50,505 nucleotides of DNA from Escherichia phage tuinn. The position numbers were made by a program, and so were the translations under genes. Shown in pieces: positions 11,770-50,505 of this stretch; within the stretch, counting starts at the first letter, position 1; every line of letters begins with the position of its first letter. The notes beneath the pieces are model-generated. The model saw only the letters and a program-made list of their open reading frames with translations, had not been told where the DNA came from and did no database searches. The DNA lies in sequence record MN850606.1, one strand, 5' to 3'.

Positions 11770-13745
11770 TAAACAATTTCCCCCAATTGATGATCTGTTA
11801 GTGCCTTGTGCCATATACGGAAGTTTCTAACGTGCCCGAAAAGATGACGTTCTCCAGTAGTTGTTTGTCCGCCAATCCTTATAGTAGCCGTTGATACTAT
11901 ATATCTCCATTCCGTTTTTGTTTCGCTTGATATTCTGGCATTACTTACACAACAAGTATTGTAATCACTCTTTACTCTCATTCCTATGATCATCTTTTTT
12001 AGTTTCGCATTCTCGTTAACCCTTCTGTTTGATTTACCTATATCGCAATAAGGGAATCCATCATTATCGCCCTTGGCAGATCCGAAAGCAAGAATAATTG
12101 CCGCACCAGATTGATGACCTCCAGTATCAAAAACACGAGGCGCAGCATTTGGCGTCATACTCCAGTTTTTATTAGCTTCCACAAGTAATGTAAACGGCAA
12201 ATTGTAAAGGTTGTTTTTTATTGGTAATGTAACCATATCGCTTGCCCGTGTTACTGGAGTCTCTTCTGTAATAATAAAGGATGAAGCGCACGCCCCACCT
12301 TCAACTTGAGGTGTCGCAATATAAATATAATCATCCGCGCCAGTGCCCACTCCTTTTGCTGGGGCATAATGAACCATTCCACCTATCATATTTTCTGTAT
12401 CAAGTGCCTTAATTGTCGCCTCAAAAAAGATCCATTTGCTTGCTTCATCTTTAACAGCCCTTGCAGTAATACGATTTGCAGCGACGCCAGTTTTTTCAAT
12501 TGATAAATCTGTCAGATTTACGTAAGCATCACCCAAAAATGCATAAGCAGATCCATCGTAGTTTTCAAATCGTAATCGGCATCTTAAATTTGGAGTCCCA
12601 CTTTGCGCCCTGCATGATATGGTTACATACTTTTCATTTCCTGTTACATCAAAACCTCTACTGCCGGAAACGGTTACTATGTTAATCGATGAAGTTTGCC
12701 CTACCATTTCTGGTTTTAATGTAAATTTTGCGTACTGGAATCCGAAATTATCCACACCTGATCTATCTAAGATCATATTTGGTGACTTGTTCCATTTTGA
12801 AGGATTGACGCTATTTATAAGAAGGTTTGCTCTTTGCCCCTCAATGAGCAGACCATCCTTTTCAAATCTAGGTTCATCAATAGCAGCATTAGTAAGCACC
12901 CCAGACTTATTAATGTAAGTAGCGGTTGATGCGCGTTTAAACTTAACAATCTTGTCACCTGGCATCGTGATCTCATCGTCACCTATAACAATCTTTTTAT
13001 ATGACGGAGAGAATCCGGTGATCATATCCAGGGAATCATTAAACGGTATCCACACGTCCGGCAACGGTTGCAATAAATCTTTGTAAGGTTCTGCGGCCTG
13101 CTTTGCGTATTCCTCCGCTTGATCTCGCGCACTTTCAGCTCCTGCCTTTGCAGTGTTCGCAGCGTCACGCGCGGATTCAGCACCAGACTTTGCTGCTTCA
13201 GCGCCAGTCTTTGCAGTGTTTGCAGCGTCGCGCGCGGATTCAGCGGCAGCCTTTGCAGTGTCAGCACCTTTCTTGCTATTCTCTGCATTTGTTGCGCTTT
13301 TCTTTGCGTTATTCTCGCTAGTTTTAGCTGCCTTCTGGCTTGCTGCGGCTGCGTCAGCATTTGTCTTTACGTCTTCCTGGATCTTCTGTAGCTTATCCCA
13401 ATCAAAATCCTTGATGATCTCAATAAATCCAGCAAACTCCGATTCCTTCCCCTGGTAATAACGCAACGTTTCCGCTACGTCTTGCGCAAGACCGTCAACA
13501 GTTAACGAGTCATGAAGCAAGATCAGGTAATTTGTCTTCTGTACTACCGCGCCGCCAGTAGTAATTGCGCGAATGCTTGTATCGCTAATCACTTCTGTAA
13601 TCACAGCAGCTTGCAAAGGTTGAGCAAGAAAGAAAATAGTTGCACCTGGGCGAATCAAGGTTAATTGCTCACGCCATTTTGTACCGTAACCAGTTACATA
13701 ACCTTGCGCGTCCATAGACGCTTGGCCTTGTCTGTAAATCGCCAT
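11769..13745 (-). CDS. side tail fibre protein (lambda Stf-like N-terminus, Ala-rich repeats, C-terminal receptor-binding domain)
   Basis: AGGAGG RBS before ATG 13745; Ala/Ser/Lys-rich repeats; C-terminal domain, possibly jellyroll-type. Confidence 0.75.
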   Translation of the reverse strand: MAIYRQGQASMDAQGYVTGYGTKWREQLTLIRPGATIFFLAQPLQAAVITEVISDTSIRAITTGGAVVQKTNYLILLHDSLTVDGLAQDVAETLRYYQGKESEFAGFIEIIKDFDWDKLQKIQEDVKTNADAAAASQKAAKTSENNAKKSATNAENSKKGADTAKAAAESARDAANTAKTGAEAAKSGAESARDAANTAKAGAESARDQAEEYAKQAAEPYKDLLQPLPDVWIPFNDSLDMITGFSPSYKKIVIGDDEITMPGDKIVKFKRASTATYINKSGVLTNAAIDEPRFEKDGLLIEGQRANLLINSVNPSKWNKSPNMILDRSGVDNFGFQYAKFTLKPEMVGQTSSINIVTVSGSRGFDVTGNEKYVTISCRAQSGTPNLRCRLRFENYDGSAYAFLGDAYVNLTDLSIEKTGVAANRITARAVKDEASKWIFFEATIKALDTENMIGGMVHYAPAKGVGTGADDYIYIATPQVEGGACASSFIITEETPVTRASDMVTLPIKNNLYNLPFTLLVEANKNWSMTPNAAPRVFDTGGHQSGAAIILAFGSAKGDNDGFPYCDIGKSNRRVNENAKLKKMIIGMRVKSDYNTCCVSNARISSETKTEWRYIVSTATIRIGGQTTTGERHLFGHVRNFRIWHKALTDHQLGEIV

Positions 13746-13760
13746 TTGTAAAATCCTCCT

Positions 13761-13779
13761 AAATAGCACTTTTTGCTAA
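13761..13779 (+). promoter_or_regulatory. conserved motif copy (fused to RBS of tail fibre gene on opposite strand)
   Basis: AAATAGCACTTTTTGCTAA. Confidence 0.6.
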
Positions 13780-13809
13780 TGACAATGCAGATAATAGCAT
13801 TTTCAAGTG

Positions 13810-13835
13810 CAAAAAAAAACCCCGCATAAGCGGGG
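13810..13835 (-). terminator. rho-independent terminator after primase gene
   Basis: CCCCGC-ATAA-GCGGGG with U-run on minus strand. Confidence 0.6.
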
Positions 13836-13851
13836 TAATACTAGCGGAGTT

Positions 13852-14836: not shown

Positions 14837-15313
14837 TTAGCTATTCGTGCTGTTATCACCTTTGTAGAATCTTCCGCCTGGTTCGTAGTCTGAATTTTTG
14901 ACTACGCGCAACATTTCGTATTTGTCGCAACGGGTAGTAAGAGGCTTGCCGTTAGAATCAAACCGCAGATCTGGACGACAAAACGAGGCGCGGTATCCTT
15001 TGCATCCATTATATTTGTAGTCGTTATGCACCTTTTGTGCTCCAGCGGCTGAAATCATACCACGCTTTCGCCATTGGTTAACGACTTGCTGAGATACGCG
15101 CAGACGTCGAGCCATAGCAGGAACACCGCCGTAATACTCGATCAGAATGTCAAGGCGAGATTTCAGGCTTGCTTTTACCTCATCTCGCAGGATAAGAAAT
15201 CCGGTTCGGTGTTTTCGTGGTTTTTTGTCTTTACCTCGTCGCGTTCCGTTGTTACCGTTAATAGTGCGCTTGTCGATCTCACCCGTAGATACTGCAATTC
15301 GTGCATCTTTCAT
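14837..15313 (-). CDS. helix-turn-helix DNA-binding protein, candidate transcription regulator
   Basis: HTH-like ARRLRVSQQVVNQWRKRG; basic N-terminus; GAGGTG RBS. Confidence 0.5.
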   Translation of the reverse strand: MKDARIAVSTGEIDKRTINGNNGTRRGKDKKPRKHRTGFLILRDEVKASLKSRLDILIEYYGGVPAMARRLRVSQQVVNQWRKRGMISAAGAQKVHNDYKYNGCKGYRASFCRPDLRFDSNGKPLTTRCDKYEMLRVVKNSDYEPGGRFYKGDNSTNS

Positions 15314-15324
15314 CTAGTCACCTC

Positions 15325-15344
15325 ATAGCATTTTTTGTTAAAAC
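15325..15344 (+). promoter_or_regulatory. conserved motif copy upstream of helicase gene
   Basis: ATAGCATTTTTTGTTAAAAC; TATTAT at 15363..15368. Confidence 0.6.
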
Positions 15345-15400
15345 AGTTTATTGTAATGAGTCTATTATATACTCCAAATGGCATTTTTTAAAGGTTTAAG

Positions 15401-18903: not shown

Positions 18904-18953
18904 GCCCGGCATTTTGTCGGGCATAATTATTTCATCGAAACGAACGTGAGGAA

Positions 18954-22064: not shown

Positions 22065-22126
22065 AATTTTTCCTTTTTGGTTGGTTCGTTTCGATGAAAC
22101 AAATATACCCGACACAAGGTCGGGAG

Positions 22127-24908: not shown

Positions 24909-24962
24909 GATTAGATCTCCTTTGTTTGTTCGATGTGATTATGCCAGGTTTTTACACCTGGC

Positions 24963-26414: not shown

Positions 26415-26627
26415 TCATTTCTTATTTTTCATCTTAAATTTATGGCCTGGAACACCAGCACCAATATATCCATCGTTGTATTCCATTAAATAAAGGTGAA
26501 GACCATTATCTGAAATTACATGAGGATCTTCTTTGAGATTTCCCATTAGCGGGTATTCTTTTCCGCGCGTAAATCTCCAAGTTGAGTTATAAGTTTCTAC
26601 GCATTTAAGTTTTAATTGCTTTGCCAT
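26415..26627 (-). CDS. hypothetical protein
   Basis: 70-aa ORF coupled to upstream gene. Confidence 0.4.
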   Translation of the reverse strand: MAKQLKLKCVETYNSTWRFTRGKEYPLMGNLKEDPHVISDNGLHLYLMEYNDGYIGAGVPGHKFKMKNKK

Positions 26628-26824
26628 TAGATGATCTCCATGTATGTTTCAAAGCCATTTAACTTGAACAGGCCGTTTTCACATTTGCGAACGTTCCAAG
26701 TTAGCCCTGAGTGGTACGCCTCCATATCATCAAGGTCAATGGTGATTTCAGCACCTTTCTTAAACAAACCTTTTTCGTGAGACTTGTCGCGCTTAACAAC
26801 TTTAACATCAACCTGATTTTCCAT
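26627..26824 (-). CDS. hypothetical protein
   Basis: 65-aa ORF downstream of motif and TATAGT. Confidence 0.4.
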   Translation of the reverse strand: MENQVDVKVVKRDKSHEKGLFKKGAEITIDLDDMEAYHSGLTWNVRKCENGLFKLNGFETYMEII

Positions 26825-28125: not shown

Positions 28126-28185
28126 TTACTATCTCCTGAGCGGTTCGTTTCGATGTGTGTAATGTACCCGATCAGGTGGCATGAG

Positions 28186-28206
28186 TTTTAACAAAAAGTG
28201 CTATTT
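28186..28206 (-). promoter_or_regulatory. conserved motif copy, candidate promoter of minus-strand early block
   Basis: TTTTAACAAAAAGTGCTATTT; TACATT and CATCGAAACGAAC box follow on minus strand. Confidence 0.6.
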
Positions 28207-28435
28207 GACGGTTATCGCCAGGATTGCGATCGAAATAATCAAAAGTAATCATTCGTAATCAAATCACGTCAAAATGATGATTGCCTTTGCAAATTTGATG
28301 AGAAAAGTAATCACGTTTAATCATTGGTTGCAGGGGAGATAGTGAAACCTTCCCCTCTTGCCTCACTTTTCCGCCTGGCTGTCAGTGGTTGTTGTCTTTT
28401 GTTCACCCCTGTTACCGATTTCAGGCGGCGTGTTT

Positions 28436-28665
28436 CCGCGCGGTTTTCCGGTGTAGCGAAAACGAAAAAAACAAAAAAATCCCTCTATAATACATTGAAA
28501 ATAAAGATTATTTATTTATATATATCTATAATGTTTTCTTTTTGTTCTCACTGTTACAGTGCTTTTTGTTGGTTATGGTGTGGTTGTGTGTGGGTATATA
28601 TGGATAGTTGCGCGCGCGGCGGATTGCATATGTATATATACTTTTTCCGGCGGATTGCGTTAACA
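28436..28665 (+). repeat. non-coding regulatory region, copy B of duplicated element
   Basis: Shared segments with 7741..8000; A-tracts, two TATAAT boxes, GCGCGCGCG and ATATGTATATATA tracts, CGGCGGATTGC twice. Confidence 0.55.
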
Positions 28666-28759
28666 GCGTGAACATAAAAATAACAGCAGCGAAATCAATA
28701 ACTTGCGCATGATTTTGTAGTTTTTCGATATTGGTAACGTTTTGAATACAACAAAAACA

Positions 28760-28787
28760 TTGACACGCACCAAATAGCTTTTATAAT
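28760..28787 (+). promoter_or_regulatory. near-consensus sigma70 promoter of plus-strand early block
   Basis: TTGACA, 16-nt spacer, TATAAT. Confidence 0.65.
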
Positions 28788-35926: not shown

Positions 35927-36157
35927 ATGTTCGGCATGAACGAGGCGCAATTCAACGCAGCTAAACGCCAGGCTAAAAAGTGCGGCGAGGCAATGAAAGC
36001 GGATGTGGAAAAGCGCGGGAAGTATGTTGATGAAGTAATGAAGGGCATCATTGCAGAACACTACCAGCCAATCGCGCCAATGTTGACGATCACTCAATTC
36101 ATTTGGCTATGTGGTTACTTGCGCGGACGTTGGGGGAACGCTTTCGACAGGGAATGA
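35927..36157 (+). CDS. hypothetical protein
   Basis: GGGGAGAGG RBS before ATG 35927. Confidence 0.4.
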   Translation: MFGMNEAQFNAAKRQAKKCGEAMKADVEKRGKYVDEVMKGIIAEHYQPIAPMLTITQFIWLCGYLRGRWGNAFDRE

Positions 36158-37521: not shown

Positions 37522-39089
37522 TGATCATATGGGAAGATTTGACGGCGGCGCAAAAGCGAGCCATTAAAGAAATCAGTGAGCATTCATTCGAAAAGATGAT
37601 CAGAATCTGGTTTCAGTTATTGCAGGGGCAAAAATTCCAGAGCAACTGGCATTTTAGCTTATTGTGCAGTGAGGTAGAGAAGATCATCAATGGAGAGTCG
37701 CAGAATGTGATTTTCAACATTACGCCAGGTAGCGGTAAGACTGAGATTTTCTCGATCCACATGTCACCCTACGCGTCATTGAAAAGTCGGAAGGTGAGAA
37801 ACCTTAACCTTTCGTTTAGTGATGGACTTGTCCAGCAAAACAGCAACAGGATAAAGGAGATTATCGGTTCTCCTGAGTGGCAAGAGCTATGGCCAGGAAA
37901 ACTGGCAAAGGCGAGCGCAAAAGATCTCATAGTTACGGATGGCGGCAAGGTTAAATTGCAAGTTAACTCACGTTCTATTGGCGGACAGGTAACAGGTTTG
38001 CGTGGCGGCTATATGGACGATGGTTTTACTGGTATGCTGGTTCTGGACGATCCAGACAAGCCGGATGATATGCTTTCTAAGGTCAAGCGTGAGGCTATCC
38101 ACATGCGGTTAAAAAACACAGTGCGATCGCGCCGAATGAAAGACACTACGCCGATTGTTATGGTGCAACAGCGACTACACGTTAATGATTCCACCTGGTT
38201 TATGCTTAATGGCGGGATGGGTGGTATTGAGTTTAAAGTTGTGAGTATTCCGGCGCTGGTTACGAAAGAATACCGCGAAACGCTTCCTGATTGGTTGAAG
38301 CCTGAATTTGATCGTGATGTGTTGTCAAGTAAGCCAGTGATGATAGATGGCGTTGCTCATTATTCATTTTGGCCTGCGAAGGAAAGCGCGGAGGAATTGC
38401 TTGCATTGCGCAATGCAGATCCTTATACGTTCGCCAGTCAGTACCAACAGCAACCCATCGCGCTTGGCGGCAACGTGTTTAAAACAGAGTGGTTCCAGTA
38501 TTACGGCAGCGGAGAAAAATGCGCACTTCCTAAACCGGATCGCTTTGAATACACATTTATTACTGGTGATACCGCGCAGAAGGCCGGAGAGCTTAACGAC
38601 TATTCAGTTTTTTGTTATTGGGGGATGTATAAGAATCGCGTTTACTTCATTGATGGCATTCGCGGAAAGTGGGAAGCGCCGGATCTTGAATTAAATTTTA
38701 TTGCCTTCGTTAATCAGTGCTGGAAGCGCAATAAGGAGTGTGGCAGCTTGCGACGTATCCACATTGAGGATAAGGCCAGCGGCACGGGTTTGATTCAGGG
38801 GGCCAAAAAGAAGATCCCGATTGATATAAATCCCGTTCAGCGAAGCAATGACAAGGTAACGCGAGCAATGGACGCCGCGCCAGTAATGAGGGCCGGACGT
38901 GTGGCACTGCCAGAAAGTCATCCCATGTTACCTGAGATACTGGCAGAGGTTGCAGCGTTCACTTTTGACGATTCTCATCCCCATGATGATATTGTCGATA
39001 ATATAGTTGATGCTGTTAACGTCGAAATGAACTTGGCTGATGATCCGGTAGCAAGGATGAAAAAGCTGGCTGGTCTACGCAATAAATAG
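37521..39089 (+). CDS. terminase large subunit
   Basis: ATPase motifs (TPGSGKT, LVLDDPD) and C-terminal nuclease-like region; synteny with portal. Confidence 0.75.
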   Translation: MIIWEDLTAAQKRAIKEISEHSFEKMIRIWFQLLQGQKFQSNWHFSLLCSEVEKIINGESQNVIFNITPGSGKTEIFSIHMSPYASLKSRKVRNLNLSFSDGLVQQNSNRIKEIIGSPEWQELWPGKLAKASAKDLIVTDGGKVKLQVNSRSIGGQVTGLRGGYMDDGFTGMLVLDDPDKPDDMLSKVKREAIHMRLKNTVRSRRMKDTTPIVMVQQRLHVNDSTWFMLNGGMGGIEFKVVSIPALVTKEYRETLPDWLKPEFDRDVLSSKPVMIDGVAHYSFWPAKESAEELLALRNADPYTFASQYQQQPIALGGNVFKTEWFQYYGSGEKCALPKPDRFEYTFITGDTAQKAGELNDYSVFCYWGMYKNRVYFIDGIRGKWEAPDLELNFIAFVNQCWKRNKECGSLRRIHIEDKASGTGLIQGAKKKIPIDINPVQRSNDKVTRAMDAAPVMRAGRVALPESHPMLPEILAEVAAFTFDDSHPHDDIVDNIVDAVNVEMNLADDPVARMKKLAGLRNK

Positions 39090-39106
39090 CACTAATTGCT
39101 AAAAAG
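39084..39106 (+). promoter_or_regulatory. conserved motif copy (variant) between terminase and portal
   Basis: AAATAGCACTAATTGCTAAAAAG then TATAAT (39110..39115). Confidence 0.55.
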
Positions 39107-39118
39107 TTATATAATCAA

Positions 39119-39142
39119 GGCTGGATTTTTCCAGCCTTTTTT
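39119..39142 (+). terminator. hairpin + T-run inside late operon
   Basis: GGCTGG-ATTTTT-CCAGCC plus T6. Confidence 0.55.
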
Positions 39143-43685: not shown

Positions 43686-43711
43686 CTGATAGCATAAAAA
43701 AACATTGCACG

Positions 43712-43730
43712 TTTAACAAAAAGTGCTATC
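43712..43730 (-). promoter_or_regulatory. conserved motif copy, inverted relative to late operon
   Basis: TTTAACAAAAAGTGCTATC on +. Confidence 0.6.
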
Positions 43731-43733
43731 ATC

Positions 43734-43760
43734 TAGGCCGTTACATTTAACGGCCTTTTT
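43734..43760 (+). terminator. rho-independent terminator
   Basis: AGGCCGTTA-CATT-TAACGGCCT plus T6. Confidence 0.65.
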
Positions 43761-43775
43761 TATGGAGGAAGCAAA

Positions 43776-44747
43776 ATGGCTAAAAAATACGATGAATTAG
43801 ATGCTACCATTGTAGCAAATCATTTACAGGTTCAGGGCGTTAAGGGTGATGCTTCTGATATGGGTATTTGGACCGCTCAAGAGCTACACAAGATCCGCTC
43901 TACCGCATACGAGAAAGAGTATCCGGCAGGTTCCGCACTTCGCGTATTCCCTGTAACAAACGAGCTTTCTGATACTGATAAGACTTTTGAGTATCAGACT
44001 TTTGATAAGGTTGGCTACGCGAAAATTATCGCCGACTACACCGACGATCTGCCGACCGTGGACGCGCTGATGACTTCTGAATTTGGCAAGGTGTTCCGCC
44101 TGGGTAACGCTTTTCTGATCTCCATTGATGAGATTAAAGCAGGTCAGCGAACTGGCAAGAGCCTGTCAACTCGCAAGGCTAACGCTGCGCAAAATGCGCA
44201 TGATCAGTTGATTAACTTCCTGGTGTTCAAAGGTTCCAAGCCTCATAAGATCGTTTCCGTTTTCGATCACCCTAACCTTACGAAAATTGTTTCTAAAGGA
44301 TGGATGAGCCATGATGGAAACACCAAGTCCCCTGATGTGGCAAGCGATGAACTGGAGGCTGCAATCGAGACTATCGAGGAAGTAACCAAAGGTCAGCACC
44401 GCGCGACTAACATCCTGATCCCGCCGTCCATGCGTAAAGTCTTGACGGTTCGAATGGAAAATACCACTGAAAGTTATCTTGAATACTTCCAGAAGCAAAA
44501 CGGCGGCATCACTATCGACTCTATCGCAGAGCTTGAGGATATTGACGGCAAAGGTACGAAAGGTTGCTTGGTTTACGAAAAAGATCCAATGAACATGAGC
44601 ATTGAGATTCCAGAAGCGTTTAACATGCTTCCGGCGCAGCCAAAAGACCTTCATTTCAAGGTTCCTTGCACTTCCAAGTGTACTGGCCTTACTATTTACC
44701 GTCCGTTTACGATGGTGCTTATTACTGGCTTGAAAAAGTCAGCTTAA
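43776..44747 (+). CDS. major capsid protein
   Basis: GGAGG RBS; 323 aa; strong terminators on both sides. Confidence 0.65.
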   Translation: MAKKYDELDATIVANHLQVQGVKGDASDMGIWTAQELHKIRSTAYEKEYPAGSALRVFPVTNELSDTDKTFEYQTFDKVGYAKIIADYTDDLPTVDALMTSEFGKVFRLGNAFLISIDEIKAGQRTGKSLSTRKANAAQNAHDQLINFLVFKGSKPHKIVSVFDHPNLTKIVSKGWMSHDGNTKSPDVASDELEAAIETIEEVTKGQHRATNILIPPSMRKVLTVRMENTTESYLEYFQKQNGGITIDSIAELEDIDGKGTKGCLVYEKDPMNMSIEIPEAFNMLPAQPKDLHFKVPCTSKCTGLTIYRPFTMVLITGLKKSA

Positions 44748-46737: not shown

Positions 46738-47400
46738 ATGCACTTGCCTAATGGTTCTCAAATTTTCATCGGCGTTAATATGGGTGAGCCAATTAGCGCG
46801 ACTCAAATCAGCAATGCTGATAATCCTGTTTTTACAACCGAAAACACTCAAAGCATCAAAAAAGGCGCTTATGTTCTTATTGAAACATCTTCTTGGGGCA
46901 AACTTGTTAGTCGAGTGCTTCGAGTTAAGGAAGTATCAGATAATGCAAGTGTTACTCTTGAGGGTGTTAGCACTAAAGATACAAACGTATTTCCAGAAGG
47001 ACAGAACACAGCAACTTTCCGAGAAGTGAAATCTTGGGTAGAGGTTCCTTGCGTACAGGATCTTGCGCAGGACGGCGGCGAGCAACAGTATTACACTTAT
47101 CAGTGTTTGGCTGATGACCATGAGCAGCAGTTGCCGACCTACAAGAGCGCGGTTTCTCTTACCTACACTTTCGCTCATGAATATGATAACCCGATTTATC
47201 CGATCTTGCGCGAGGCTGAGGAATCCGGCGACGTAACCGCTTTGCGTATGTACGTGCCGAAAGCTAAAGAGATGCGTTGCTGGGCTGGCGTATTGTCTTT
47301 TAATGACATTCCGCAAACAACTATGAACGAAATGGAAACTGTTTCCCTTTCTGTATCTATGAAAGGCCGATTCACGTTCTTACCTTCCGACGTTAAGTAA
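46738..47400 (+). CDS. major tail protein
   Basis: AAGGAGG RBS; 220 aa; followed by strong terminator and then the G/GT chaperone. Confidence 0.65.
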   Translation: MHLPNGSQIFIGVNMGEPISATQISNADNPVFTTENTQSIKKGAYVLIETSSWGKLVSRVLRVKEVSDNASVTLEGVSTKDTNVFPEGQNTATFREVKSWVEVPCVQDLAQDGGEQQYYTYQCLADDHEQQLPTYKSAVSLTYTFAHEYDNPIYPILREAEESGDVTALRMYVPKAKEMRCWAGVLSFNDIPQTTMNEMETVSLSVSMKGRFTFLPSDVK

Positions 47401-47405
47401 AACAA

Positions 47406-47426
47406 GGGGCGTTGCGCCCCTTTTTT
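47406..47426 (+). terminator. rho-independent terminator after major tail gene
   Basis: GGGGCG-TTG-CGCCCC plus T6. Confidence 0.75.
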
Positions 47427-47466
47427 CATTCCTGTAAAATCAATCTATCAAATAAATTAATTCCAC

Positions 47467-47485
47467 TTTTAACAAAAAGTGCTAT
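47467..47485 (-). promoter_or_regulatory. conserved motif copy fused to RBS of tail chaperone gene (inverted)
   Basis: TTTTAACAAAAAGTGCTAT followed by AAGGAG and ATG 47500. Confidence 0.6.
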
Positions 47486-47499
47486 AAGGAGATCTTAAG

Positions 47500-47817
47500 A
47501 TGGCAAAGATGAAACTAACGTTAGGCCCACTGCCTGATTTTAAGCTGCCTGTTTCTTTCGTGCTTCCAAATGGTGATGAGCAAGTTATTGTTTTTACCGT
47601 GCGCCACAAGAAGGCAAGCGAAATTCACGAACGATACACGGCAGAAAAGCCGATGAGCGACGTAGAAATGATCACCTTCCTTGCTTCCGGTTGGGATCTG
47701 GAAGATGAATTTAACGAGGAAAACGTTGCTAAATTGCTGGATTATTACCCGTCTGCGTCATTATCGCTGACTGGTCATTATATGAAAGCACTTGCGGGGC
47801 AGCGGGTAAAAAACTAA
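47500..47817 (+). CDS. tail assembly chaperone (lambda gpG-like)
   Basis: Position between major tail and tape measure; ends at slippery site. Confidence 0.7.
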   Translation: MAKMKLTLGPLPDFKLPVSFVLPNGDEQVIVFTVRHKKASEIHERYTAEKPMSDVEMITFLASGWDLEDEFNEENVAKLLDYYPSASLSLTGHYMKALAGQRVKN

Positions 47818-48173: not shown

Positions 48174-50505
48174 ATGGCTGAAAAATACGCTGGCCTAACG
48201 CTAGGCGTTGACGTGTCGCAGGTCAACAATGCTGTTAAATCATTGCAGCAATTCAAGAAGGCAAACGACGACGCAAAAAAAAGCGTTAATGAATTTGTTG
48301 ATTCTGAGGTTGTGGCCCGACAGCAAGCAAAACAGCTTGCCGAAGAACTGGCGCGCCAGAAAGCAGAATTTAAGAAAATCCAGGAGTCAATTGATCCCAC
48401 TGCATCAAAGATGGATAAGCTGCGAAAGGCAGCGACACAGCTTGATGCGCTATGGAAAAAGGGCGTTGTTCCTGATCAGACTTTTTTTGAGCTTGGGGCA
48501 ATTCTTGAGACGCAGCAAAACAAGCTGATCGCAACCAAAAAAGCGATGACAGAGGAAGGCCGCGCGGCGCTTGAGGAATCAAAGAACAAGGCGCGTGCAG
48601 CGGAAGAGGCTAAAAAATTCGTCCAGGCTTTGCGTGAGCAGGAAGAAGCAGCAGGAAAAAGCAAGTCTGAATTGCTGGAAATGAAAGCGGCACAGCTTGG
48701 AGTTAGCCAGGAGGCAGCACCTTACATCGCAAGGCTGAAAGAGCAGGAAAAGCAGATCCAGAAACTTGGGATTTCTACAGGCCAATACAAACAAGCAATG
48801 GCGCAATTGCCAATGCAGATCACAGACGTGGTGACTTCACTTGCTTCTGGTATGCCAGTTTGGTTGGTCGCAGTCCAGCAGGGTGGACAGATCAAGGATT
48901 CTTTTGGTGGTGCATCCAATGCTTTAAAAGCGTTGCTATCTTTCCTGAATCCGGTAAACGTGGCGTTTGGCTTGCTTTCCGGCACGCTGGCAATTGCTGC
49001 ATATAATGCCTACAAAGCACAGACAGAGCTTGAGGCAATTAAAAAAACCGTTCAGGAAACAACTGGCTTGAGTGGTGAGTTTGCCGAAAAGATTGCTATA
49101 GGAATCCAGGAGCTTTCCGACAAGACAGGCGAAAGCGCCGAAGATCTGGCAAAGGCTTACATAACAACGAAAGACGGCGCGAGCGAGGCGATTAAAAAAC
49201 TGGTTGACGTTGGAATGACTTATGATGACGCAAAAAAGAAAGTCAACGAGTACAAGGGCGCGTCTAGCTTTGTCAGCTTGAATAACGAAATTGCAAACCA
49301 CAAAAACAAAGTCCTTGAGTTGGGCGAGTCGTGGTATGAAGTTTTGAAAGCTAAGCGTGATTACGCTTCCCCGTCCGGCGGCCTGTTAGGTAAAGAGCTT
49401 GGCTATGTTAATCCTATGCTTAAGTTTGCACTTAACACTTATGAAGACATTGGAAAGGTCGTAAAAGATGCGAATAAGGACATGGCGGAACGAGCGGAGC
49501 GAATCGACAAAGAAAACCTGGCCTTAAACAGAGTGCGCGCAGCACAGGAGGCTTTAAACAAAGCCATTGAGGATCAGAAAAATGTGGCGCGTTCGGCTGA
49601 TGAAGAACTGAAAAAGCGCGCGGCTGAAAACGTGGAGTTTAGGCGCAAAGAGCTTGAGGAAATCAAGAAGCAGGAGCAGAAAAAGAAAGAGGCTAAAGGG
49701 GGAATAGTTCGCGGCCCTACTGAGCAGCTTGATAAAGAGTTGTACGTTTTAAAGGCGCAACTGGAAACTCTTAAAGAGCATCGCACTGTTAACGATGTTA
49801 TTTCTCGCCAGCGTAAATCTTTATGGAGCATCGAAAAGCAGATCGAGATCCTGGAGAATGCGCAGAGCAAGCGTAAATTGACCGGAGCGGAACAGGCGCT
49901 ACTAAACGAGCAAAAGGCCGTTCTTGAAATGGCAAGACAAAAAGCTGAGCTAGGGGATCAGATTGTTTTGCAGGAGCGCAAAAACAAGCTGGAGCAAGAT
50001 AGTCTTAAGTTTATCCGTGAAACTGAGGCTGCTATTGATGCGATTGGCCTTAAGCAACTTGGATACACTGAAAAGCAGATCGAGCGTGAGCTAGAGTTAC
50101 GCAAGCTGCGCACCGACTACGAGGCGCAAGGCGGAAGCGTTAGCGACGAAGTTTTTCAGCAAATGGAGACGAAACTTAAGCTGTATTACCAGGCACAAGA
50201 CGAGGCGCAAGGCAACTGGTTAGCCGGAGCAAAGAACGCATGGGAGCTATTCGCGGAAGATGCAAACAATGCCTATGGCAATGTTCAGCAGATCGCAAGC
50301 GAGGCGTTAAACGGCCTTACAAACCAATTAGCGAATTTTATCGCTACTGGCAAGGCAAACTTTAAAGACTTCTCGACGGCTATCATCAAAATGATTATCC
50401 AGATGATCACGAAAATGGTCGTCTTTAATGCGTTATCTGGCCTGATGGGTGGTCAAACCTGGACGATGGGGAGCTTGCTTAAGAATATTGGCGGATTTGC
50501 TGGCG
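48174..50505 (+). CDS. tape measure protein, N-terminal segment (runs off window end, continues at 1..332)
   Basis: GGAGG RBS; long coiled-coil ORF with no stop in window; phase matches 1..332. Confidence 0.8.
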   Translation, partial: MAEKYAGLTLGVDVSQVNNAVKSLQQFKKANDDAKKSVNEFVDSEVVARQQAKQLAEELARQKAEFKKIQESIDPTASKMDKLRKAATQLDALWKKGVVPDQTFFELGAILETQQNKLIATKKAMTEEGRAALEESKNKARAAEEAKKFVQALREQEEAAGKSKSELLEMKAAQLGVSQEAAPYIARLKEQEKQIQKLGISTGQYKQAMAQLPMQITDVVTSLASGMPVWLVAVQQGGQIKDSFGGASNALKALLSFLNPVNVAFGLLSGTLAIAAYNAYKAQTELEAIKKTVQETTGLSGEFAEKIAIGIQELSDKTGESAEDLAKAYITTKDGASEAIKKLVDVGMTYDDAKKKVNEYKGASSFVSLNNEIANHKNKVLELGESWYEVLKAKRDYASPSGGLLGKELGYVNPMLKFALNTYEDIGKVVKDANKDMAERAERIDKENLALNRVRAAQEALNKAIEDQKNVARSADEELKKRAAENVEFRRKELEEIKKQEQKKKEAKGGIVRGPTEQLDKELYVLKAQLETLKEHRTVNDVISRQRKSLWSIEKQIEILENAQSKRKLTGAEQALLNEQKAVLEMARQKAELGDQIVLQERKNKLEQDSLKFIRETEAAIDAIGLKQLGYTEKQIERELELRKLRTDYEAQGGSVSDEVFQQMETKLKLYYQAQDEAQGNWLAGAKNAWELFAEDANNAYGNVQQIASEALNGLTNQLANFIATGKANFKDFSTAIIKMIIQMITKMVVFNALSGLMGGQTWTMGSLLKNIGGFAG

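Follow-up and report, generated by a model that had tools for sequence, protein, structure and literature searches.

A published intergenic repeat of T1-like phages has promoter geometry and overlaps predicted late promoters

Copies of the box and their published identity

Escherichia phage tuinn (MN850606.1) is, judged from its sequence, a T1-like siphovirus of the family Drexlerviridae. The window, by which we mean the whole 50,505-nucleotide (nt) stretch of DNA analyzed, is 99% identical to Escherichia phages JLBYU01 and tunus in a 5-kb test stretch; T1 is a relative. Our subject is a 17-nt box, ATAGCAC-N3-TTG-N-TAA, and in particular its copies in inverted orientation in front of the genes for tail assembly chaperone G, the long tail fiber, a helix-turn-helix (HTH) protein, and the major capsid protein (MCP). 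The genes named in the initial annotation (tail assembly chaperone, major capsid protein, primase, helicase, and weak-HTH protein) were confirmed by Pfam. A search of the window with the 17-mer TTAACAAAAAGTGCTAT gave 16 occurrences at up to 3 mismatches, against 0.39 expected, and the relaxed pattern ATAGCACNNNTTGNTAA gave 19 copies at up to 2 mismatches; we count the motif 18 to 19 times overall. The motif is also present in T1, where the capsid and chaperone genes are among those preceded by a copy.

All four inverted copies were found where the initial annotation had placed them. At G the arrangement is TTTTAACAAAAAGTGCTAT-AAGGAG-N8-ATG (47467..47502); at the fiber gene it is TTAGCAAAAAGTGCTATTT-AGGAGG-N9-ATG on the minus strand, with the ATG at 13745; and at the MCP gene the box (43713-43729) is followed by a hairpin (43735-43756), the Shine-Dalgarno (SD) sequence, and the ATG at 43776. 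The HTH arrangement, TTAACAAAAAATGCTAT-GAGGTG-ATG at 15313, was also recovered, but with 5 nt and not 6 between SD and ATG. The opposite orientation is genuine at 13763, 43713, and 47469, and about 15 copies read ATAGCAC... toward the downstream gene. At 15325 the copy is inverted only when read from the HTH gene; for the divergent helicase gene (15401) its orientation is the usual one.

The box matches the consensus of a 21-nt direct repeat of phages TLS and T1, aaATAGCACnnnTTGnTAAAA, with both its T-type and G-type subclasses represented; the late copies compare with that consensus as gATAGCACTTTTTGTTAAacg (MCP), tATAGCACTTTTTGTTAAaag (G), and aATAGCACTTTTTGCTAAtga (fiber). On this match we identify the motif as the published intergenic direct repeat of the TLS, T1, and Rtp phages. 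The TLS repeats were reported to be oriented with transcription and to precede start codons by ~76 nt, and their presence in T1, Rtp, and Rogue1 was noted as well; the authors suggested stoperators, enhancer-binding sites, or UP elements and left the function as an open question (PMC11447400). Table S1 of that paper puts one copy, DR7, on the negative strand beside terminator T35 without comment (PMC11447400); DR7 is the capsid-gene copy. The published rule of orientation and distance holds for about 15 copies of the window and fails at 13763, 43713, and 47469, which are oppositely oriented and 14 to 46 nt from the ATG, as it likewise fails at TLS DR7. A -10 hexamer at 21 nt, copies in opposite orientation, and overlap with late promoters are not reported in the TLS paper (PMC11447400), which was the only relevant result of a keyword literature search; a search with sequence strings gave nothing relevant. 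The repeat has already been published without explanation, and its promoter geometry and overlap with late promoters appear to be new.

Promoter geometry of the box

About 15 copies in the window have a -10-like hexamer (CATAAT, TATAAT, TATAGT, TATTAT, or TAAAAT) 21 nt (20 to 22) 3' of the box, followed by a C/A-rich leader, the SD, and the ATG. When the boxes of the window, T1, and the Klebsiella webervirus SegesCirculi were taken together, 46 of 54 had a -10 hexamer 20 to 22 nt downstream, scored as at least 4 matches in 6 with A2 and T6; the background for such a hexamer at one given position is 2.1%. Of the eight exceptions, seven are late-gene copies (MCP, fiber, portal, and small terminase [TerS]), and the remaining one, at 104 in T1, lies close to the genome end. 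No -35-like hexamer was found at 16 to 18 nt, the bases at the -35 position (AAAACT/TAAAAC) being unlike TTGACA. The ordinary box is the upstream box (about -50..-34) of -35-less early/middle promoters; a good -10, no -35, and a conserved box at a fixed upstream distance together form the pattern of activator-dependent promoters. The ~76 nt from box to ATG arises because 17 + 21 + 6 + ~7 nt are followed by a leader of ~25 nt. The initial annotation had read a second function from a fixed position of the inverted copies relative to the start codon. This regularity breaks down beyond the one genome: the box lies 12 to 23 nt from the ATG at G and ~17 to 22 nt at the fiber gene in relatives, and it is missing from both sites in several lineages. 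Only at the HTH gene is it flush against the SD (a gap of 0 nt) in every lineage examined. The conserved geometry of the box is its distance to -10 hexamers, not to the start codon.

Other identities for the box did not fit. A sigma-54-like reading (TAGCAC-N3-TTGCT) was rejected on inspection because its GG/GC elements are incorrectly spaced and because a -10 is conserved at a distance of 21 nt, and neither the UP-element register nor the consensuses of IHF, Fis, DnaA, and DeoR matched. A generic promoter scanner gave no excess over shuffles overall and was useful for 28760-28787 and 15364-15392 only.

Several further features accompany the ordinary box promoters. Inverted repeats lie inside the 21-nt spacer or around the -10 of many of them (18904-18922, 22108-22124, 24944-24961, and others), and in the T1 record their counterparts are labeled rho-independent terminators, so that many box promoters appear to share a single stretch of ~45 bp with a terminator. 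A conserved C/A-rich leader, CATCGAAACGAAC and variants, directly 3' of box promoters (~18929-18941, 22090-22102, and 28140-28152; also locus L106) is common to Escherichia and Klebsiella phages. A degenerate box, ACAGCACGAATAGCTAA (2 mismatches; 14837-14853, minus strand), overlaps the end of the HTH gene and has TAATAT and a hairpin at 21 nt, upstream of the primase gene; its T1 equivalent lies at 35979-35995.

At the MCP gene, the box coincides with the spacer, the TG (-15/-14), and the first 3 nt of the -10 of a promoter, P_MCP (coordinates of this and the other sites are given in Table 1). Box-bearing MCP loci share an upstream stop codon, an A-rich tract, TTG(C/A)(A/C)(C/G), 2 nt, the first 14 nt of the box, and a -10 that may be TATCAT, TATATT, TATTAT, TATGAT, or TATTCT. 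The TTG of the -35, the 16-nt spacer, and TATnnT are kept in all box-bearing sequences but one (L127), and the TG in all; the arrangement persists down to 54% MCP identity, weberviruses included, and within the spacer the box sequence, too, is conserved. In Rtp-like phages the box is missing, and TTGCGT-16-TATAAT occupies this position. On the opposite strand, no conserved hexamer was found 21 nt away (TATCAG, TATGCG, TATACA, and TAGCAC occur there). With both its spacing and its key bases (TTG; TA...T) conserved, P_MCP is predicted to be a near-consensus sigma-70 promoter reading toward the capsid gene.

The hairpin behind P_MCP has a G+C-rich stem and a T-run, as an intrinsic terminator has, with a folding z of -2.46 and compensatory changes in 6 of 9 pairs in 14 lineages. 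The predicted transcription start site (TSS) of P_MCP, ~43739, falls in its 5' arm. The portal gene is similar, with a hairpin (39117-39138) between the late -10 and the SD and the predicted TSS in the 5' arm. Because of this placement, transcripts of the capsid and portal promoters themselves would be without the full stem, and upstream read-through, which carries the stem, could terminate. The hairpin after P_MCP and the portal promoter (P_portal) is thus a possible self-insulating promoter/terminator module; alternatively, it may stabilize the 5' end of the mRNA.

For the G site, 80 loci were retrieved with a G-protein profile, and 24 distinct box-bearing sequences were compared; the box is missing in the TLS-like, Henu7-like, webervirus, and Rtp-like lineages. 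A single arrangement was found in 24 of 24: a terminator whose loop and 3' arm carry TTGCnn, a spacer, TAnAAT, 1 nt, a backward hexamer, 21 nt, and the box. TTGCnn lies 16 to 17 nt upstream of the -10 of the sense promoter, P_G, in the lineages read, and the sense -10 carries 2, 2, 0.65, 2, 2, and 2 bits per position. The backward hexamer is TAnnnT throughout (24/24), with T-12, A-11, and T-7 invariant (2.0 bits) and the inner positions at 0.48 to 0.70 bits. Between hexamer and box, the 21-nt length is constant and the sequence variable (mean, 0.90 bits), as against 1.95 bits for the box. Box-less lineages keep the terminator and the sense promoter, and the backward hexamer is missing from them. 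The G copy is, as predicted from this pattern, a complete box-21 nt--10 promoter unit facing backward over the sense promoter. Since the two cores overlap, with predicted TSSs ~12 bp apart, polymerase binding to them should be mutually exclusive. Leftward from its start, the predicted backward transcript would enter the terminator and the 3' end of the major tail gene; it has no conserved open reading frame (ORF).

Two candidates at G were rejected. A small antisense ORF (47196-47429) behind the backward promoter has an ATG that is not conserved in relatives (e.g., locus L004), and a sense promoter for G formed by the box (TGCTATAAG) would place the TSS past the SD, has no -35, and is missing T-7 in relatives. 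The module 47441-47485 (backward -10, 21 nt, and box), compared with loci L125, L127, and L134, resembles an insertion of ~45 bp, the presumed ancestral short leader being ...TAAAAT-tgactcacaaaccaatcaggag. Its form suggests that promoter units can be copied to new places, like the mobile promoter cassettes of T4-type phages.

At the fiber gene, a terminator and then an extended -10 promoter, P_fib, are kept in ~60 distinct relatives, nearly all of which conserve TGnTAnnAT. The extended -10 takes the forms TGCTATAAT, TGCTATTAT, TGATAAAAT, and TGGTACAAT; the box of the window comes after TGCTATTAT. In many lineages a box variant (TTAGCAAAAAGTGCTAT, TTAACAAAACGTGCTAT, or TTAGCAATTCGTGCTAT) lies 5 to 11 nt after the -10, at roughly +1..+22, with the SD next; it is missing in weberviruses and in TLS-like and slyngel-like phages. 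No -10 hexamer was found 21 nt from the fiber copy.

The portal box lies a constant 7 nt, not 21, before TATAAT or TACAAT in ~20 related loci and covers -36..-20. In T1 a box overlaps, tentatively, a possible -10 of the TerS gene. Since the portal box is in the ordinary orientation yet overlaps a late promoter, it is position that matters, not inverted orientation. The common trait of the exceptional copies is overlap with a host-type promoter.

TABLE 1 Coordinates of the box copies and of the genes and signals around them
Feature	Position	Strand	Details
Tail assembly chaperone G gene	47500-47817	+	Pfam Phage_TAC_4
Box upstream of chaperone G	47469..47485	+	TTAACAAAAAGTGCTAT; ATAGCAC... on minus strand
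Backward-facing -10, TAGATT	47442..47447	-	Exactly 21 nt from box; predicted TSS ~47435, leftward
Major-tail-gene terminator	47404-47422	+	Overlaps sense promoter P_G
P_G (predicted)	-35 TTGCGC 47412-47417; -10 TAAAAT 47435-47440	+	17-nt spacer; predicted TSS ~47447, rightward
Chaperone G SD and start	AAGGAG 47486-47491; ATG 47500	+	
MCP gene	43776-44747	+	Pfam
P_MCP (predicted)	43705..43732	+	-35 TTGCAC 43705-43710, 16-nt spacer, TG 43724-43725, -10 TATCAT 43727-43732
Terminator-like hairpin and T-run	43735..43761	+	Between P_MCP and SD 43764-43769
Portal promoter with box in ordinary orientation	39086..39115	+	ATAGCACTAATTGCTAA, 7 nt, TATAAT 39110-39115; hairpin 39117-39138, SD next
Box copy in long tail fiber leader	13763..13779	-	TTAGCAAAAAGTGCTAT; ~+6..+22 of P_fib
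Terminator (13819-13836) and T-run, then extended -10 P_fib	13791..13836	-	TGC 13797-13799, TATTAT 13791-13796; predicted TSS ~13784
HTH regulator gene (158 aa, T1 ST23 family)	14837-15313	-	phrog_2856; weak Cro/YdaS-type HTH
Box of helicase-operon promoter	15325..15341	+	ATAGCATTTTTTGTTAA; abuts SD of divergent HTH gene (ATG 15313, -)
Shared, nearly palindromic -10 region	15363..15392	both	P_helicase TATTAT (+) 15363-15368, 21 nt from box
P_HTH (predicted)	15392-15364	-	TTTAAA (15387-15392)-17-TATAAT (15364-15369); reads through box

A proposed mechanism and its alternatives

The box core is a 5-bp inverted repeat, TAGCA-N5-TG(C/T)TA, with halves one helical turn apart, a variable center (TTT, GAA, or TAA), and asymmetric flanks that include strongly conserved positions. 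The HTH gene, whose own promoter, P_HTH, reads through a box, encodes the candidate for a protein that binds it. In TLS only three canonical sigma-70 promoters were reported, and P57, the counterpart of P_HTH, is among them (PMC11447400). Matches of the HTH protein to Cro/YdaS HTH families are weak and below the Pfam cutoffs. Its structure model has a pLDDT of 85, and the best fold matches of the HTH domain are all-alpha Cro proteins (Xfaso1 Cro, and N15 Cro bound to its operator), with C-protein folds among the weaker matches. All-alpha Cro proteins bind pseudo-palindromic operators as dimers. Orthologues of the HTH protein were found in 849 phage records, and a Pfam scan of 40 early ORFs revealed no other recognizable regulator. 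We infer that the Cro-like HTH protein is probably the box-binding protein. Two other parts of this protein are strongly conserved: an N-terminal basic arm, DKRxxNGNNGTxRGKDKK, modeled with low confidence, and a C-terminal module, RASFCRPDLxFDxNGK...C, for which no family match was detected.

We propose that the motif is a DNA element that controls transcription, with one factor responsible for both activation and interference, and we put the probability of this reading at about 0.5. A factor bound at about -50..-34 would be needed at promoters that have a good -10; since these are -35-less they would depend on it, whereas the late promoters, with a consensus -35 and extended -10 or an extended -10 alone, would not. 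The inverted copies sit over promoters that host RNA polymerase should recognize unaided. At the capsid gene the box would act from inside the spacer and extended -10, at the fiber gene from ~+6..+22, and at the regulator's own gene from ~+17..+33. A single protein that binds the box, most likely the Cro-like HTH protein made from a canonical promoter, would turn on the early/middle promoters and hinder the late promoters and its own, directly at the MCP, fiber, and HTH genes. At G the hindrance would come from polymerase recruited in the wrong direction, which would exclude polymerase from P_G.

The functions offered in the initial annotation fare unequally against this reading. A late promoter read the other way was borne out at the capsid gene only, where the box lies in the promoter core, and not at G or the fiber gene, where the sense promoters are separate and upstream. 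Position gives its best support to an operator: in host-type promoters the box occupies the core or the early portion of the transcribed region. The operator and promoter readings are each supported in part.

A number of observations weigh against the proposed mechanism. No binding, TSS, RNA-seq, or expression data for any T1-like phage were found in the literature searched; a PNAS 2026 paper combining Drexlerviridae and RNA-seq profiles a T5-like phage instead. At G, the invariant A...TA falls on -5, -1, and +1 of the sense promoter and may therefore owe some of its conservation to P_G. Repression of the most abundant late protein would call for an unexplained step that releases the late genes. 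The HTH recognition helix varies between lineages and the box is nearly invariant, so that conservation of the helix, considered as a link to the box, gave no support. All lineages examined have the HTH gene together with the box, and candidates are therefore not discriminated by co-occurrence; weberviruses, too, have both, with the HTH gene in another place and at least 15 boxes. The asymmetric box positions (C7, the T-tract, and TAAAAC) are not explained by a symmetric dimer alone, and many small early ORFs of no assigned function could encode the real factor.

We hold a narrower version to be possible but doubtful, in which a single Cro-like protein runs the T1-like temporal program purely by box geometry. 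The box at -42 would recruit polymerase to more than 15 -35-less promoters, boxes inside late cores would block, and G would keep a gene-less backward decoy promoter solely to park polymerase on a late promoter.

Unlikely, though the strongest of the rivals, is a reading in which no phage factor takes part and host RNA polymerase (the C-terminal domain of its alpha subunit, or sigma region 4) treats the box as an element of UP type or as a stand-in for the -35, with the inverted copies acting only by polymerase competition at G or as parts of the late promoter (spacer and TG) at MCP. Box promoters come first in the early arms (at 28188 in the window and at 48735 in T1), and, if immediate-early, they must fire before any phage protein exists; but canonical sigma-70 promoters (28760-28787 and 15364-15392; P01 and P57 in TLS) could give immediate-early expression. 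The box is A/T-rich on its promoter-proximal side (TTGYTAAAAC), and UP elements were raised by the TLS authors (PMC11447400). TTGYTA, however, is 22 nt from the -10, too far for a -35 role, and the exact conservation of the P_MCP spacer over 54 to 100% identity would be unusual if nothing contacted it. The UP-element consensus, moreover, is not known to contain an invariant G/C-containing heptamer such as ATAGCAC.

It is improbable that the late copies lack a regulatory role at late genes and arose incidentally from a promoter cassette that duplicates or moves, like the PeSL cassettes of T4. The insertion-like module at G and the patchy presence of the box across lineages at the G, fiber, portal, and TerS sites would fit such an origin. 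Against it, in lineages that have the G module the box, the precise length of the spacer, and three key -10 bases persist as its other positions diverge, and every box-bearing lineage examined, from weberviruses to Tunavirinae, retains the MCP copy; this pattern of conservation at G and MCP indicates purifying selection.

Ranking lower, stoperator-like sites, at which a bound phage protein would block elongating polymerase in an orientation-dependent manner, are quite improbable. The leader copies at G, fiber, and HTH do share one orientation relative to transcription and lie downstream of promoters, and the analogy was drawn by the TLS authors (PMC11447400). Most copies, however, are in the opposite orientation with respect to read-through transcription and stand 21 nt from a -10, which is promoter geometry; the constant 21 nt and TAnnnT at G would be needless for a roadblock, and the phages are virulent, with no immunity repressor known.

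We give slightly less credence again to the box as the loading site of a Q-like antiterminator. In its favor, the P_MCP box lies between -35 and -10, like the lambda Q-binding element; terminator-like hairpins directly follow P_MCP and P_portal, many terminators lie between late genes, and TGCTAT on the non-template strand of the leaders could be a sigma-dependent pause element. The HTH protein, however, has no similarity to Q families and folds like Cro, and a Pfam scan of 47 proteins gave no Q-family match. The position of most boxes, -50..-34 of early promoters, is not a Q-type arrangement, and, because the late terminators have their own promoters behind them, antitermination is not required.

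Least credible is that the leader box acts on RNA, as a translation enhancer, a processing site, or a protein-binding element fused to the SD, the third function named in the initial annotation: the box does end 0 to 3 nt before the SD of the G, fiber, and HTH genes in this genome, with a flush HTH junction in all lineages and an A-rich leader, but these leaders showed no folding advantage over shuffles (z = -0.18, -1.54, and +1.53), an Rfam scan of the window gave no match, the SD/ATG register drifts in relatives (box-SD gap of 0 to 10 nt at G), several lineages lose the box and keep the SD, the MCP copy is upstream of its own predicted TSS and so untranscribed from P_MCP, the RNA of ~15 promoters would carry the complement, and the portal and T1 TerS copies are in the other orientation.

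Related systems and further features

The position-dependent regulator logic is a variant of known logic. Phage phi29 p4 and the controller (C) proteins of restriction-modification systems are single binders that activate or repress according to the position of the site, as proposed here; a small dimeric regulator bound upstream activates -35-less promoters and represses the cores that it overlaps. There is no sequence or family relation, the polarity in phi29 is the opposite (late genes activated, early genes repressed), and the logic here is predicted. The lambda CII promoters PRE, PI, and PaQ are -35-less and dependent on an activator box like the box promoters, and PaQ faces backward and dampens late genes, in which it resembles the backward unit at G. 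Unlike the box, the CII site consists of direct repeats, TTGC-N6-TTGC, straddling the -35; and PaQ makes an antisense RNA inside a gene, whereas the predicted transcripts at G do not overlap and occlusion would take its place. In T4 middle promoters, a phage MotA box replaces the -35 and is joined to a host sigma-70 -10, as in the box promoters, but the MotA box is centered at -30 and needs AsiA, and the box here is centered at ~-42; the proteins scanned with Pfam included no MotA or AsiA homologue.

Bidirectional or divergent overlapping sigma-70 promoters with symmetric -10 elements have reportedly been described by Warman et al. in 2021. The HTH/helicase pair resembles them in sharing a palindromic TATAATA/TATTATA -10, with predicted TSSs ~18 bp apart, and the G pair in having adjacent -10 hexamers on opposite strands. 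The difference is that one direction here has a conserved box and no -35, so that the choice of direction would be factor controlled, and that the backward direction at G has no gene to express. The stoperators of mycobacteriophage L5 share with the box many copies of one asymmetric site in short intergenic spaces, and leader copies downstream of promoters in one orientation (cited in PMC11447400); the fixed distance to -10 hexamers, the virulent phage, and the mixed orientations set the box apart.

T1 is a classical coliphage, and Drexlerviridae are abundant in phage collections and among therapy candidates. The box-21 nt--10 geometry turns the repeat into a promoter map with dozens of predicted transcription starts, and the copies overlapping late promoters are likely points of coupling between early and late expression. 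If the proposal is true, one box and one small protein would make a compact, engineerable switch whose outcome is set by position, about a thousand deposited genomes would be better annotated, and the reading with a single Cro-like protein would answer the published question about the 21-nt repeats.

Other features of the window lie away from the inverted copies. Between two divergent early arms is a stretch of ~550 bp (28205-28787) that is non-coding and AT-rich, with (TA)n-like repeats, and may be the site of an origin or a pac-related region. A perfect TTGACA-16-TATAAT promoter at its end (28760-28787) is probably an immediate-early promoter. A 65-aa ORF (26627-26824, minus strand) matches Pfam PF25180, "Phage antiviral trigger protein Gp54," with an E value of 1.7e-38.

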